From the IMG/VR virus record IMGVR_UViG_3300008448_000009, positions 1-64,000 of that record: a stretch of DNA of 64,000 nt; one strand, 5' to 3'. Position numbers and translations under genes: made by a program. Each line of letters starts with the position of its first letter. Within the stretch, counting starts at the first letter, position 1. Under the pieces are notes generated by a model. The model was not told where the DNA came from and did no database searches. It worked only from the letters and a program-made list of their open reading frames with translations. Positions 27,245 through 62,989 of the stretch are shown piece after piece. The DNA comes from a virus.

Positions 27245-27313
27245 TTTGTTTTTGTTTTATTATAAATATTATATTTAAAGTTAAAAAATGGTTTAATCGA
27301 ATAATTTTTATAA

Positions 27314-30909: not shown

Positions 30910-30970
30910 ATTTTATAGTTTTATTATAAATATTCTAGGTTTTGAATATATTTATAATAAAACATAATTT

Positions 30971-58373: not shown

Positions 58374-58712
58374 ATGAAAAGTTTTATAAAACAAAGACTC
58401 AGAGAACAAATGATTGATGGTCAAAACATGAATGGCAGCATGCAAAATAGTTGTAATACAATGACTATTAATAGTTATGATGAAGCTTTAAGTAGAGTAG
58501 AAGCATCGCTTAAAGGTGTTAGTCCAGAAACAAGACAACAAGTTATGCAAAAAATTCACGTTCCGTTGGAAAATCTTAAACAAGAAGAACAAAAATTAAA
58601 CCGTGAAGAAAAATCACAACACATGACTGGTGATTCAATGCCAGACCAAGTAGACACCTATTGGCACCAAATTCAATCAACGTTGTGTGAATTAGGCCCA
58701 GATTTTGAATAA
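58374..58712 (+). CDS. Hypothetical protein, possible head-internal protein
   Basis: ATG at 58374; N-terminus MKSFIKQRLRE. Confidence 0.55.
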   Translation: MKSFIKQRLREQMIDGQNMNGSMQNSCNTMTINSYDEALSRVEASLKGVSPETRQQVMQKIHVPLENLKQEEQKLNREEKSQHMTGDSMPDQVDTYWHQIQSTLCELGPDFE

Positions 58713-58713
58713 T

Positions 58714-59235
58714 ATGAAACAAGTAATCAAACAATTATTAAGAGAAAATTTAATAAAATGTGTCAATCTTTATCCAACAAAAGAAGTTATAAACTATGTT
58801 AATAATTTTGATTCAGACGAACAACTATTACGTAGTGGTGGTTTACCAGATGATATCTTAGATAGATACGCTTTTGGTTTCACTGAGTCTGATATGACCG
58901 AATTAGACCCATCAAGAATCTCAATAAAATGGCATAGTGATTTAGAGAATGTTATTTGGGAGGTTAAAGAAAGTGGTCTTTCACCTATAGAATGGTCAAA
59001 AAAAATTAACTTAACAGAACCTATTGATGTTTCTTATGAGTCAAATGGTTTCGGGTTAAAATTTTATTTAGAAGATGGGCATCATAGATATTATGCTGCC
59101 AAAACATTAAAAAAACCATTAAATGTTAATTTAAGAATCAAAGCAAATCCAATAAATAAAATAACTAAAAACAAATTAGGATATGATGATTTTCATAGAT
59201 GTTTATTTAATCAAGTAAAAACTATTGACAATTAA
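58714..59235 (+). CDS. ParB/Srx-like domain protein
   Basis: EPIDV...LEDGHHRYYAA motif. ATG at 58714; N-terminus MKQVIKQLLRE. Confidence 0.7.
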   Translation: MKQVIKQLLRENLIKCVNLYPTKEVINYVNNFDSDEQLLRSGGLPDDILDRYAFGFTESDMTELDPSRISIKWHSDLENVIWEVKESGLSPIEWSKKINLTEPIDVSYESNGFGLKFYLEDGHHRYYAAKTLKKPLNVNLRIKANPINKITKNKLGYDDFHRCLFNQVKTIDN

Positions 59236-59253
59236 AATAGTTTTTAGTATATT
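59225..59253 (+). promoter_or_regulatory. Consensus-like promoter
   Basis: TTGACA-17-TATATT; predicted start site near 59260. Confidence 0.7.
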
Positions 59254-59259
59254 TATGAT

Positions 59260-59333
59260 TATACGTTAACTCACGTATTGGTTTCGAGTCAGAAATGGCT
59301 TTAGAGTTGTCTAGGCAACAAAGAAATTGGTAC
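59260..59333 (+). ncRNA. Candidate structured 5' leader RNA (three-way junction)
   Basis: P1 59275-85/59323-33; P2 GAGUCA-GAAA-UGGCUU; P3 GUUGU-CUAG-GCAAC. The G.U pairs work only on the + strand. Confidence 0.45.
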
Positions 59334-59365
59334 AATAATAACAATAAATTAAAAGTTAATTAAAC

Positions 59366-60346
59366 ATGAAAAACTTAAATTATGTGGCACCAAAAATGCC
59401 AACAGCTAATTTGGCTGTAAACAAAAGTAGAGTTAAACTCTACAACAAACAAGGCGATTTGCCAACTTATTACTTACAAAAAGGGCAAGAGTTCCAGATT
59501 GAACTTTTCAATCCAACTACGGACACTGTACTTGCTAAAATTACACTTAACGGAAATGTTATCTCACAAGGTGGTCTTGTTTTAAACCCTGGCCAAAGAG
59601 TATTTCTTGATAGATACTTAGACGTAGCTAAAAAATTCTTATTTGATACTTACGAAGTAGCTAACACACAAGAAGTGAAAGAAGCCATAGTAAACAACGG
59701 TGACTTCAAAGTAGAATTCTATAGAGAATCAAAACCAAGACCAAGAAATCCAATAATTACTCTTGGTGGTTTTGGTAAAAGAAGCGTTTTTGGTGGGCCA
59801 AATTATGACCAAGGGATTATTCGTTACGATAGTACAAACACTGGTGGTTATGTTTACAATTCAGGCACTGCACCTAACACACCGTTGTGTAATACATTCA
59901 CAACGTCTACTAACGCTGTTGGTGGTTCATATTCAACAACTGGTTTGTTAACTGGTGATATTTCAAACACACTTTCAACTAGCGCGTTCTATAGCTCAAA
60001 CGTAAATTATAGCGACACCTTAAACGGTGAAGTTACAATGGATTGGATGTCGACTGAAAAAAGTGTTGAAACACCTAAAAATCTAACTAGAAGTTTAAAA
60101 GCTAAAAAATCTAAATCAATTGAAACTGGTAGAGTTGAACAAGGTTCACATTCTGACCAAAAATTCAAAACTGTTGATAAAGATTTTGAATGGTTTGCTT
60201 TCCATACTGTTGAAGCCAAGTTGCTTCCAGTATCTCAAAAAGTTAACACAGCTGAAGATATTAATGTAAAAAGATATTGTACAAACTGTGGTGCCAAACT
60301 AGGTAAAGGACACAAGTTTTGCGCTACATGCGGCACAAAAGCATAA
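59366..60346 (+). CDS. Zinc-ribbon domain protein with an N-terminal beta-rich domain and an S/T-rich linker
   Basis: C-terminal CTNCG...FCATCG. Confidence 0.75.
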   Translation: MKNLNYVAPKMPTANLAVNKSRVKLYNKQGDLPTYYLQKGQEFQIELFNPTTDTVLAKITLNGNVISQGGLVLNPGQRVFLDRYLDVAKKFLFDTYEVANTQEVKEAIVNNGDFKVEFYRESKPRPRNPIITLGGFGKRSVFGGPNYDQGIIRYDSTNTGGYVYNSGTAPNTPLCNTFTTSTNAVGGSYSTTGLLTGDISNTLSTSAFYSSNVNYSDTLNGEVTMDWMSTEKSVETPKNLTRSLKAKKSKSIETGRVEQGSHSDQKFKTVDKDFEWFAFHTVEAKLLPVSQKVNTAEDINVKRYCTNCGAKLGKGHKFCATCGTKA

Positions 60347-60373
60347 TAAATAATTAATCGAGTTAACGTATAT

Positions 60374-60400
60374 AAAAAAAGGGCCATATGGCCCTTTTTT
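60374..60400. terminator. Bidirectional intrinsic terminator
   Basis: A7-GGGCCATATGGCCC-T6 palindrome between convergent genes. Confidence 0.88.
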
Positions 60401-61043
60401 ATTGTATTGTTAAATCCATTTTATTTAACTTGAACATATCGTTCAAATCTTTTAATGTGGTTGGTGTAATTAATCCGTTTATATTAGAACCAATCCAACA
60501 TTGTGTAGTACCGTTGATAAATAATACCTTAAAAAATGCTGATGGAATTGGAATTCTAGATTTACCCATATACTTTTTATTCTTAGGGTCATATATGACA
60601 CCAGTGATAATAACAACATCTTGTTTTGACTCAGCAATTATATCTTCAACATCACCTTCCATTTGGGCCCATTTACCTCTATTGAAACCAGCCAATTGTG
60701 GCGCTGCGTTGAACAAGCTAAAAGATTTATGGTTCAAATTATTATCATAAGATGTGATATGTGACGGTGTCAAATGACCAATATCATAACCAGTTTTTAA
60801 ATACGCGTCTTTATAGTATTTACCTTTGTACGTATCTTGAAACCAACGGTTGTCTCGCTCTTTATCTAGCTTTAGAAAGCTTGAATATTTTAAAACATGT
60901 TTGGATACCAAAGCGCAAGTATCTTTAGTTAAATACAACGTAATGTCTCCGTGGTTTATGATTAGTTTGTTGTCTGTTTTTACGGTCTGTGAAAACATGG
61001 TCATTGTCATGAACAATGTTATAAGTAAAAATATTTTCTTCAT
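60399..61043 (-). CDS. DNA/RNA non-specific endonuclease (Serratia/EndoG His-Me finger) with a signal peptide
   Basis: GYDIGHLTP, NAAPQLAGFNRGKW, ITG and IPIPSAFFKV motifs. N-terminus MKKIFLLITLFMTMTMFS resembles a Sec signal peptide. Confidence 0.85.
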   Translation of the reverse strand: MKKIFLLITLFMTMTMFSQTVKTDNKLIINHGDITLYLTKDTCALVSKHVLKYSSFLKLDKERDNRWFQDTYKGKYYKDAYLKTGYDIGHLTPSHITSYDNNLNHKSFSLFNAAPQLAGFNRGKWAQMEGDVEDIIAESKQDVVIITGVIYDPKNKKYMGKSRIPIPSAFFKVLFINGTTQCWIGSNINGLITPTTLKDLNDMFKLNKMDLTIQ

Positions 61044-61065
61044 ATCTATAAATATCCTATAAAAC

Positions 61066-61096
61066 AAAAAAGGCCACCGTAATGGTAGCCTTTTTT
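61066..61096 (-). terminator. Intrinsic terminator downstream of the major capsid gene
   Basis: A6-GGCCACCGTAATGGTAGCC-T6. Confidence 0.8.
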
Positions 61097-61114: not shown

Positions 61115-62989
61115 TTATCTTAATTCGTTGATGTTAAATGTTTGAACACCGTCAACTCTTAAGTGACCATAGAAACGGTTGTTTACGACTTTTTTCGCGT
61201 AACGAGTCATAATACCTTTCACTGGAGCGAAGTTGAATGGGTTATACATTGTAGGTGTCAATTGTAATGGCACGTATGGAGCATAGATGTATCCAGTGTC
61301 TAACAATGATTTACCTTTGTGACCAATGATGATAGAGTAAGATGGTGCATAAGGGTCACGGTACACTTGGTAACGTCCACTTAAAGAACCGATTCTTTCA
61401 ATACCCATGTTGTATTGGTCTTGCTCTGGGTTAGCGTCACTTACGTGGAAGTATTCTAAGTCATCAAAGATAGCTGAGATTTCTGAAGATACTACGATAA
61501 AGTTAGCACCACCTCTAAGAGTTGATTTATGGATTTGAGCAGAGATTTGGTTTAATTTAGTAATTAAAGTTTGGTTCCACTCTTTTTGTGTGTATGGTGC
61601 AGCAGCATTACCTGTAGCTTTTCTCCATCCGTTGTAGTCCCAACGTAATTGCCATGCAGCAGCTTTACGTAAGTCTCTAAGGATTTCACGGTCGATTTCA
61701 GCAGCAACTTGCTCAGAAAGCATTGCAGTTAATTCAGCTTCAGCGTCGATGTTGTGGAATGCACTAACGTCTTGCGCTAATTCTGGAGACCATGTAGCTC
61801 TTAATTTTCTTTCTTCAACTGATACTACAACTTCATCTAATCTGAAAGATACTTCTCCCATTTCAGTTTCAAGTTCTAATGTAGCGTATTCAGCCCAAGT
61901 TACTACTAAACCAGCAGTAGTTGTGATAGCAGATACAGTAGTAGCAGAAGCACCTACATAACCATCGTATGTTGCAGTACCTACAGCAGCAGCACCTGTA
62001 CCAGCAGTTGAACCAGCTGGGTGAGTCAAGTCTAACTCAATGTACATAACACCGTTTGGTGTAGTTAAGATTGGGTAACCACTAGCGTTTACGTTTTTAG
62101 TTTGAACAATACCAGTTCCATATTTTTGAGTTACAATACGGAAAGGAACTTCACCACCAGCAGCAACAACTTGGTTACCATCACGGTCTAAAATAGCGTT
62201 AGTAGAAACAACTTTCAACGAAGCCAAGAATGACTCAGTATCCATGTTGTTACCATCAGGACCAGTTAATACTTCTCTACCAGCAGCAGAACCAGCACCA
62301 CCTGTGAAACCTGAAATAGATAAAATAGCGTTTCTCACAGAACCATCAGCAGCAGTTGGGAATGAGGTACTTGGAGGTGGAACACTAAATACACCATTAG
62401 AGTTTAATGTTTGAGCGTTAGCGTTAGTAATGTTGTAAGTTACGATAGTAAGAGTACCTTTTGATTGGTCGAATAAACCATCGTTGTAGAAAATATCATA
62501 CAAGTTTTTAGCCATCCAAGGAGTTACTGTACATGTAGCATCAGCACCTTTAACACATGATGGAATACCATCATACCCCATTGAAGTGTGAGCTGAGAAA
62601 GTAGGTCCATCACCGTTATAGTAATCACCACCAACACCAGCAGCGTTTACACGCTCTGAAGTCAAAGGCACAAAGAAGAACAATTTACCGATTGGCATGT
62701 TCATAGCTTGTACTGATACAACGTCATTAGCTAATAATTTTGAGAAAACTCTACGTACAATTGGGAATACTACAGTTTCAAAAGAACCTGAGCTACCAGC
62801 AGTAGTTGATTCAGTCAATAATGAAGACGCTTGGTTTTCATATAATTGAGCGATGTTTTCTTTAACGTGGCCTCTAAGACCATCTAGGAATCCTAATGAA
62901 TCCCATTTTTGTTGAGTCTCTAAACGGATAGCCTTCATGTGGTTTAATCCGATGTTACCAACTTGTCCAGATGTTAATAAATGTGACAT
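61115..62989 (-). CDS. Major capsid protein (T4 gp23-like)
   Basis: VSVQAMNMPIG, RKLRATWSPELAQD, IDAEAEL...EIDREIL and YAPYVPL...GIMTRYA motifs. Confidence 0.95.
   Translation of the reverse strand: MSHLLTSGQVGNIGLNHMKAIRLETQQKWDSLGFLDGLRGHVKENIAQLYENQASSLLTESTTAGSSGSFETVVFPIVRRVFSKLLANDVVSVQAMNMPIGKLFFFVPLTSERVNAAGVGGDYYNGDGPTFSAHTSMGYDGIPSCVKGADATCTVTPWMAKNLYDIFYNDGLFDQSKGTLTIVTYNITNANAQTLNSNGVFSVPPPSTSFPTAADGSVRNAILSISGFTGGAGSAAGREVLTGPDGNNMDTESFLASLKVVSTNAILDRDGNQVVAAGGEVPFRIVTQKYGTGIVQTKNVNASGYPILTTPNGVMYIELDLTHPAGSTAGTGAAAVGTATYDGYVGASATTVSAITTTAGLVVTWAEYATLELETEMGEVSFRLDEVVVSVEERKLRATWSPELAQDVSAFHNIDAEAELTAMLSEQVAAEIDREILRDLRKAAAWQLRWDYNGWRKATGNAAAPYTQKEWNQTLITKLNQISAQIHKSTLRGGANFIVVSSEISAIFDDLEYFHVSDANPEQDQYNMGIERIGSLSGRYQVYRDPYAPSYSIIIGHKGKSLLDTGYIYAPYVPLQLTPTMYNPFNFAPVKGIMTRYAKKVVNNRFYGHLRVDGVQTFNINELR

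Follow-up and report, generated by a model that had tools for sequence, protein, structure and literature searches.

The pairing of the 5′ untranslated region (UTR) with the 3′ UTR within one mRNA is an already known kind of interaction in prokaryotes, and the cases behind it are very few; the chief ones are hbs and icaR, each established by mutagenesis in one species. In the Bacillus subtilis hbs mRNA, a segment of 14 nucleotides (nt) in the 5′ UTR is described as complementary to a site just upstream of the terminator, with a free energy (ΔG) of −19 kcal/mol (PMC5737220). According to the same account, this interaction limits RNase cleavage, and mutations that disrupt the pairing, together with compensatory ones, were used to validate it (Braun, Durand and Condon 2017, PMC5737220). 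In the Staphylococcus aureus icaR mRNA, a UCCCCUG motif of the 3′ UTR is described as pairing with the ribosome-binding site and blocking initiation (Ruiz de los Mozos et al. 2013, PMC3868564). A preprint additionally reports that long-range mRNA folding is widespread in B. subtilis (PMC12697547). Here we describe a candidate for such pairing in a DNA phage. The window that we analysed is a stretch of 64,000 nt (positions 1 to 64,000 of IMG/VR virus record IMGVR_UViG_3300008448_000009), part of a 119-kilobase (kb) record that is estimated to be 36% complete. Within it, a perfect inverted repeat brackets the gene of a zinc-ribbon protein, and we propose that the two arms of the repeat are the strands of a helix that joins the ends of this gene's mRNA. 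Our literature searches returned no paper on this phage motif.

The inverted repeat TATACGTTAACTC is found at 59260-59272 and its exact reverse complement at 60360-60372. The two copies are 13 nt long, 100% complementary and 1087 nt apart, and these are the only two sites in the window that match the 13-mer without a mismatch. A sequence-only reading of this DNA had pointed out the repeat, and its sequence, its coordinates and its spacing of about 1.1 kb are all as claimed. That reading had also set the 5′ arm at the predicted +1 of a TTGACA-17-TATATT promoter and the 3′ arm between the stop codon and the terminator, and both placements hold. The promoter-like site is present on the + strand at 59225-59253, matches 11 of 12 consensus positions, and is kept in the flank alignment of relatives. 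As the predicted +1 falls at about 59259-59262, the 5′ arm UAUACGUUAACUC (59260-59272, + strand) would form the first nucleotides of the mRNA, 94 nt 5′ of the AUG. The open reading frame (ORF) of the zinc-ribbon protein, 326 amino acids in length, covers 59366-60346 on the + strand, and the 3′ arm GAGUUAACGUAUA (60360-60372, + strand) lies 13 nt past its stop codon. A terminator-like, bidirectional hairpin follows at 60375-60400, with 11 pairs, five of them G-C, and then a T run; it is common to the zinc-ribbon gene and a convergent nuclease gene (60399-61067, − strand). The predicted 3′ UTR of the zinc-ribbon mRNA is about 60 nt. On these predicted UTR borders the unit has the arrangement seen in hbs, a 5′ UTR segment complementary to a 3′ UTR segment just before the terminator. 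The promoter is unusual within its own genome, since the pattern TTGAC-N16-19-TATA[TA]T occurs only twice in the whole 119-kb record. The same site is also compatible with the layout TTG-N20-TAnnTTTA, which we take to be a Bacteroidota-type consensus.

By itself, the 13-nt repeat is not beyond chance; it acquires significance only through comparison with relatives. The AT-rich window contains 22 overlapping perfect 13-mer inverted pairs no more than 2 kb apart (about 13 separate repeats), compared with a mean of 8.9-10.4 overlapping pairs in Markov shuffles of the window. When upstream and downstream intergenic regions of the same 119-kb record were paired at random, a match of at least 13 nt arose 23 times in 3000 trials. 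For the 150 real pairs that were tested, this rate amounts to about one such pair per genome. Other candidate closed units in the record were rejected, as their longer upstream/downstream matches proved to be repeated promoter-like motifs and not closures. Two promoter-element-like intergenic repeats explain these spurious matches. The first, GTTTTATTATAAATAT, has three copies at record positions 27254, 30918 and 30948 (reverse complement), two of which form a divergent pair at 30918-30963. The second, CCATATAAGTTTAT, has five copies at record positions 107322, 109397, 114789, 119091 and 115522 (reverse complement).

A scan of viral contigs yielded 80 related loci, or 81 with the window's own. 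Seven were left out because the start was not found (L003, L009, L065), the locus held no stop (L076, L081) or a flank was short (L028, L041); the 74 usable loci, which have a callable gene and both flanks, represent 62 distinct flank pairs. For an enlarged set, the structured leader described below was located by a covariance model, and 61 distinct loci from the 74 were joined by 38 new ones to give 99 distinct loci. The new loci derive from 90 that a metagenome scan and a second viral scan supplied. Both flanks were complete in 76 of these, which gave 64 distinct loci, and 26 of the 64 repeated earlier ones. The second viral-contig scan, made with a divergent query, gave only 10 loci.

For each locus, the longest perfect complement was sought between 170 nt of upstream and 70 nt of downstream flank. 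In most loci its two halves had the same positions, one about 95-107 nt 5′ of the ATG and the other 5-17 nt past the stop. Perfect complementarity of at least 10 nt between a leader-proximal 5′ window and the first 36 nt past the stop was present in 73 of the 99 distinct loci, compared with 0.9% when the 3′ windows were shuffled. Similarly, 85 of the 99 reached a duplex ΔG of −12.5 kcal/mol or lower, compared with 3.4% after shuffling. On average, loci pair better with their own partners than with those of others. For the 62 distinct loci, the mean duplex ΔG was −14.9 kcal/mol with their own 3′ flanks, a value matched in none of 5000 permutations, but −9.3 kcal/mol with the flanks of other loci and −5.4 kcal/mol with shuffled own flanks.

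The two arms also change together. The two flanks were aligned separately by MAFFT, with structure not used. On these structure-blind alignments, the 13 helix pairs were 81.8% paired, compared with 70.4% when 3′ flanks were reassigned (0 of 500 controls reach the observed value) and 28-39% when the partner was slid by 1-3 columns. Seventy-two cells had changed on both sides, against 24 in the reassigned-flank control (again 0 of 500). Two-sided change of any extent was seen in 9 of 13 pairs, a count that is unexceptional (103 of 500 controls reach it). Single helix positions hold several pair types (AT 19, GC 17 and TA 8 at one position; CG 31, TA 8, GC 5 and AT 5 at another; GC 45 and AT 6 at a third). 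By parsimony on a protein tree of 60 loci, at least 22 switches from one Watson-Crick pair to another have occurred, over 7 of 11 pairs. The 61 distinct viral-contig loci carry 30 distinct arm strings. Examples of their variety are TAACGTTAACTC, ATGTGTTAACTC, TTGCGTTAACTA, ATATAGTTAACTA, GTTATGGTTAAC and ATGATTAACCC, and the strings ATCGTGATTGA, AACGTGATTAAACTA and AGACCTTGTG found among relatives are unrelated. LR756500, a 462-kb phage whose protein is 34% identical, has a clear closure with a wholly different arm (TCTCACTTTGTT / AACAAAGTGAGA). The sequence-only reading had proposed beforehand that homologues be checked for covarying complementary flanks, and this is what we found: positions are kept while arm sequences change by compensatory substitutions. 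The perfect helix is 10-15 base pairs (bp) long across loci. Its position was measured in 47 loci. The −10 hexamer is followed after 5-6 nt by the start of the 5′ arm in 27 of them, and from the end of this arm to the first helix of the leader, P1, there are 2-3 nt in 36. Behind the gene, the spacing from the stop to the 3′ arm is 5-16 nt in 46 of the 47, and that from the 3′ arm to the terminator hairpin is 0-5 nt in 40.

Between the 5′ arm and the start codon lies a second RNA element, a three-way-junction leader of 59 nt on the + strand (59275-59333). RNAalifold, applied to 59 leaders, predicted 20 pairs that form the helices P1 (59275-59285 with 59323-59333), P2 (59286-59291 with 59296-59301) and P3 (59306-59310 with 59315-59319). 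Pair counts on the same leaders agree: 99.0% of cells are paired, compensatory change is found in 16 of the 20 pairs, none of 500 shuffles reaches these values, and slid controls are 35-49% paired. Three leader pairs are invariant G:U or U:G, which makes sense only in RNA read from the + strand, and the junction contains conserved unpaired bases. The stretch from the arm to the start codon is more conserved than the protein. A covariance model of the leader has one match in its own record and always matches upstream of the zinc-ribbon gene, and leaders occur in about 75 loci. In the distant huge phages LR756504, LR756500 and LR756508 it scores 56, 49 and 37 bits, again upstream of the zinc-ribbon gene; leader copies in distant huge phages (33-40% protein identity) lie at L085:459-571, L086:473-587 and L087:455-571. 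The match in Lak-A1 is marginal (20 bits, E value 0.37). A search of 59150-60450 against Rfam gave no match at the gathering score, and all sub-threshold matches fell in the coding or terminator region, none in the leader. As judged by comparison of sequences, the leader clearly appears to be a previously undescribed conserved RNA structure on the + strand that is specific to the zinc-ribbon gene. A local 5′ hairpin, ATACGT/ACGTAT, was dropped from consideration; it was 76.5% paired, with no two-sided change, and did no better than shuffles. The leader is followed by an A-rich start region (59334-59365, + strand) that has no Shine-Dalgarno motif and holds a conserved AGUUAAU at 59354-59360.

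Two loci provide a natural test of spacing. L003 and L021 initially looked like exceptions, but the covariance model placed their true leader about 0.9 kb further upstream. Between this leader and the zinc-ribbon gene there is a free-standing ORF for a GIY-YIG/NUMOD homing endonuclease (L003:2041-2856 and L021:2169-2867), and 5′ of the zinc-ribbon gene there is a degenerate second copy of the leader. The outer 5′ arm and the 3′ arm are still complementary, over 13 and 11 nt, at a distance of about 2 kb. The arms thus mark the ends of the transcription unit, not the ends of the gene. As to the endonucleases themselves, the ORF in L021 begins with a copy of the first 20 or so residues of the zinc-ribbon protein, and in L064 (1948-2200) the zinc-ribbon frame stops after 44 residues and is followed by a GIY-YIG-like ORF. 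A group I intron was considered as their carrier and rejected, as Rfam gave no match in L003, L021 or L064.

The helix dominates thermodynamically when whole transcripts are folded. We assumed a transcript that starts at the first arm nucleotide. For the window (59260-60407, 1148 nt), the long-range helix is present in full in the minimum free energy (MFE) structure, as are the three-way junction and the terminator hairpin; the helix has an energy of about −18 kcal/mol and pair probabilities of 0.76-1.00. In 10 of 10 other loci, picked for their diverse arms, the helix was again part of the MFE structure (all pairs in nine, 11 of 12 in one), with mean pair probabilities of 0.86-1.00. In the window fold the start region also meets the 3′ UTR, a second contact that was not conserved when we read the flanks of relatives.

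We also compared the window with RNA. Small shares of it occur in eight RNA runs, and the contigs of four freshwater metatranscriptomes were aligned to it. The gene is partly covered by RNA contigs, two of which are identical to the window (59367-59565 and 59659-59813). In run X2, an 817-nt contig (depth 35) matches just the 35 nt at 59345-59379 and is unrelated on both sides, which suggests that another expressed gene in that sample shares this start-proximal sequence.

Taken together, the arms are complementary, covary, keep fixed positions relative to the promoter, leader, stop codon and terminator, and form the dominant helix in the folds. From these sequence features, we consider it highly probable that the arms are the two strands of a long-range 5′-3′ helix at the RNA level, and we infer that they pair in the cell. 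The sequence-only reading had suggested that the mRNA closes into a 5′-3′ stem, and the covariation across homologous loci and the whole-transcript folds support it. In our model, the unit would be a single-gene phage mRNA. A strong promoter would be followed by the 5′ arm, which lies at the predicted +1, and then by the leader, the start region, the gene, the 3′ arm and the terminator. Once transcribed, the 3′ arm would pair with the first nucleotides of the transcript. The helix would then lie 2-3 nt from P1 and 0-5 nt from the terminator hairpin, which would place both predicted ends of the finished RNA within adjoining helices. We propose that ends buried in this way may shield the mRNA from 5′-end-dependent and endonucleolytic decay, as in hbs, and that only the full-length mRNA would be shielded. 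If the helix forms, the chance that stabilisation or end protection is its main role is, by analogy, close to even or a little short of it. The statement as a whole, an RNA helix between the ends together with a stabilising role, we hold to be evenly balanced, slightly above what the product of its two parts would give.

Several observations weigh against this proposal. The helix is absent in 14 of the 99 distinct loci. In at least six of these (L024, L025, L036, L033, L075 and L059) the 3′ flank has been replaced while the GTTAAC core of the 5′ arm is kept, and no relocated 3′ arm was found there from 150 nt before to 400 nt past the stop. The helix is thus dispensable, and the 5′ arm must be under some further constraint. 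The core GTTAAC is moreover palindromic and present in most arms, and pairing alone does not account for it. In the Prevotella Lak homologues and in LR756504, the search for a closure gave only AT-rich 6-8-mers. Interior mismatches of the helix are 5′G:3′U in eight loci (about six lineages) and C:A in one; this excess, six lineages against one, is suggestive and by itself not significant. Neither arm is covered by a contig in the four metatranscriptome runs, nor did any joints appear. The ends of three RNA contigs, drawn from two studies, lie at 59279-59282, which is 7-10 nt past the 5′ arm, a weak hint that the mature RNA may begin after the arm; an assembly break at a variable site or poor 5′ coverage would explain these ends equally well. 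We give the hint little weight because a start at 59279-59282 would break the near-perfectly conserved P1, and because contigs do not show where an RNA starts or ends. Lastly, the stabilising effect is one that we purely infer.

The alternative that survives best, which we regard as unlikely, is a translation gate that senses the completed transcript. Here the GUUAACU core of the 5′ arm would pair with AGUUAAU 9-15 nt before the AUG and close the start region. Once transcription is complete, this pairing would be displaced by the 3′ arm, which contains the same AGUUAAC and is both longer and a better match, and translation would be licensed for full-length mRNA only. The leader alone does fold with GUUAACU (59265-59271) on AGUUAAU (59354-59360). 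Over 58 leaders this pairing is 82.5% paired, compared with 27-52% when slid, and it includes a change from C:G to U:A in three sequences and 10 cells changed on both sides, which none of 500 shuffles reaches. As AGTTAA stands before the start codon of 3 of 113 ORFs, it is not a general motif of the genome. A gate would also agree with the survival of the 5′ arm core where the 3′ arm has been lost, and with L086 and L080, whose arms differ yet match their start-proximal motifs (GGUCUC/GAGAUU and CCUUGU/AUAAGG; seen by eye and unscored). However, the duplexes are weak, −2 to −5 kcal/mol, and the 5′ arms do not prefer their own start regions: the mean ΔG was −4.10 with own, a mean reached in 881 of 5000 permutations, and −3.99 with others' (six loci in which P1 was not placeable, L080 and L086 among them, were left out of this comparison). 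Two-sided change is found in only 3 of 7 pairs, which 124 of 500 shuffles reach. Furthermore, loci without a 3′ arm would stay repressed for good.

A more elaborate version of such control, somewhat less probable still, unites a base-paired closed loop with a checkpoint that registers when the transcript is complete, in a host whose initiation does without Shine-Dalgarno pairing. Four things would have to hold jointly. The 5′ arm would first keep the start region shut through AGUUAAU; the 3′ arm, made last, would capture the 5′ arm and so open the start region; the stop codon, which is about 11 nt away from the helix, would be brought near the leader, so that terminating ribosomes can reload; and the three-way junction would be a platform for a tuning protein or ligand. 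If this were true, the unit would be the prokaryotic equivalent, made of RNA alone, of the closed-loop mRNA of eukaryotes.

We judge it about equally doubtful that the helix is an RNase III-type processing stem, maybe stacked on P1 and the terminator hairpin, that excises a one-gene mRNA from read-through transcripts or starts its decay. Read-through precursors are possible, since no terminator separates the upstream gene (end at 59235) from the arm, and the three RNA contigs that end at 59279-59282, just inside the junction region of P1, are weakly consistent with cleavage. The 5′/3′ pairing in icaR is described as yielding an RNase III substrate (PMC3868564). In our loci, however, the perfect helix measures 10-15 bp, and an end at 59279-59282 would destroy the almost perfectly conserved P1. 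RNase III substrates usually comprise about two helical turns, or about 20 bp, and the present helix falls under this length, which stacking on P1 or the terminator hairpin could extend. Moreover, a conserved promoter of its own, with the arm at +1, suits end protection better than excision.

The least likely explanation, to which we assign very little probability, is a feature of the DNA itself (paired protein sites, the crossover sites at which a segment inverts or the terminal repeats that bound a mobile cassette), since the palindromic GTTAAC core in most arms, the bracketing of a whole gene by inverted repeats and the overlap of the 5′ arm with the predicted +1, a typical operator position, are outweighed by arms that covary as reverse complements through about 30 or more variants, by a promoter-like TATATTTAT that precedes the arm in 59 of 59 aligned leaders with none in the flipped arrangement, by conserved synteny (capsid gene in 66 of 81 loci, upstream gene in 73 of 81), by immediate neighbours among which no recombinase was found, by interior mismatches that are mostly G:U on the + strand, by arms that lie exactly inside the predicted transcript borders and by an adjoining leader that is a + strand RNA structure. 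As the variants include non-palindromic ones, the specificity of a DNA-binding protein would have had to shift in step each time. These DNA-level alternatives, which the sequence-only reading had raised, thus find little support.

The zinc-ribbon protein itself gives few clues. Its sole Pfam match is Zn_Ribbon_1 at residues 304-325, and its layout is an N-terminal beta-sandwich domain, a low-complexity middle and the C-terminal zinc ribbon. There are 1730 homologues, and the named ones among the matches listed are all 'hypothetical protein' except for one labelled 'Nob1'. Among phage records, 22 match; huge phages (LR7565xx) and Prevotella Lak megaphages are among them, with identities of 33-40%. 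A first AlphaFold2 model was unusable (predicted local distance difference test, pLDDT, 41.8); a second reached 59.1, with 75-88 in the N-terminal domain. With this second model, a fold search of the PDB gave no match at an E value of 0.001 or lower and only generic beta-sandwiches, and a fold search of a viral structure library gave only uncharacterised proteins (template modelling score 0.2-0.44). A protein atlas search gave only hypothetical viral clusters. In the Lak homologues L083 (Lak-A1) and L084 (Lak-B4), the zinc-ribbon gene, at about 574-1482, contains in-frame TAG codons. These presumably reflect the TAG recoding reported for Lak phages.

The phage is T4-like; its major capsid gene (61115-62989, − strand) is of the Gp23 type. 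The closest isolates by capsid protein are Flavobacterium phages (38% identity). Shine-Dalgarno-like motifs precede 6 of the 113 ORFs of at least 100 amino acids in the 119-kb record, and upstream regions are 52% A, which we take to be a sign of Bacteroidota. The host is probably a Bacteroidota bacterium. The surroundings of the unit are largely constant: of the 81 loci, 66 have the capsid gene downstream on the opposite (−) strand, and 73 share one conserved upstream gene. Variable inserts beside the unit are a ParB-like gene (1 of 81) and the nuclease gene (22 of 81). The nuclease at 60399-61067 is a secreted DNA/RNA non-specific enzyme (Endonuclease_NS, with a signal peptide). In the ParB-like gene at 58705-59235 we noticed a DGHHR motif by eye, and its PHROG match is weak. 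Pfam and PHROGs searches of seven neighbouring proteins gave matches to nuclease, ParB-like, capsid and CBM-like families and no recombinase, which for these immediate neighbours bears out what the sequence-only reading had stated.

We believe that this locus is of general interest. The phage helix amounts to a compensatory-mutation experiment that evolution has run repeatedly, over about 30 arm sequences, and the helix has survived the insertion of a 0.9-kb gene. It provides a defined system for asking whether the pairing of mRNA ends controls stability or translation, and it does so in likely Bacteroidota hosts, where post-transcriptional control and initiation without Shine-Dalgarno sequences are poorly understood. 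In addition, the leader, which is absent from Rfam, sits on a core gene of freshwater huge phages whose protein homologues also occur in Lak megaphages.

How does the proposed helix compare with other RNA interactions? Ribosomal RNA is flanked by processing stems, which, similar to the RNase III sites in T7 early mRNA, have about 20 bp or more and are cleaved. As in the ribosomal RNA stems, distant flanks pair round a gene-sized loop at our locus, but over 10-15 bp. Stem-loops at the 5′ terminus, such as that of ompA, stabilise bacterial mRNAs and are local hairpins. In the phage mRNA the first nucleotides would likewise be paired, which would hinder 5′-end-dependent decay; unlike in ompA, the partner is 1.1 kb away, so that protection would cover completed transcripts only. 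Long-distance interactions also shape the genomes of the single-stranded RNA phages MS2 and Qbeta, and the eukaryotic closed loop is bridged by cap and poly(A) factors. In all of these, long-range contacts couple distant parts of a translated RNA, whereas here the RNA is an mRNA of a DNA phage and the contact would be direct base pairing.

Among the prokaryotic cases, icaR shares with our locus the intramolecular pairing of the 5′ and 3′ UTRs, and for icaR a regulatory effect is known (PMC3868564). The icaR 3′ UTR is described as long and as acting at the start region; here the 3′ UTR is about 60 nt, there is no Shine-Dalgarno sequence, and the partner of the 3′ arm lies about 94 nt 5′ of the start codon. 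The resemblance to hbs is closer. As hbs is described (PMC5737220), both helices are fully complementary (13 nt here and 14 nt in hbs) and of similar energy (about −18 and −19 kcal/mol), and in both the mRNA is short and monocistronic, its structured 5′ UTR contains one strand, and the other strand comes just before the terminator. They differ in that the hbs 5′ strand is described as lying inside the leader over an RNase Y site, whereas here it would comprise the predicted first nucleotides, and in that ours belongs to a phage gene whose host is probably a Bacteroidota bacterium. Additionally, the hbs interaction rests on mutational tests and the present helix on natural covariation over about 100 loci. 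What is new here is therefore the setting in a DNA phage with probable Bacteroidota hosts, the geometry in which the extreme 5′ end is paired beside the terminator, the depth of natural covariation, and the link to a structured leader, previously undescribed, that accompanies a core gene of huge phages.

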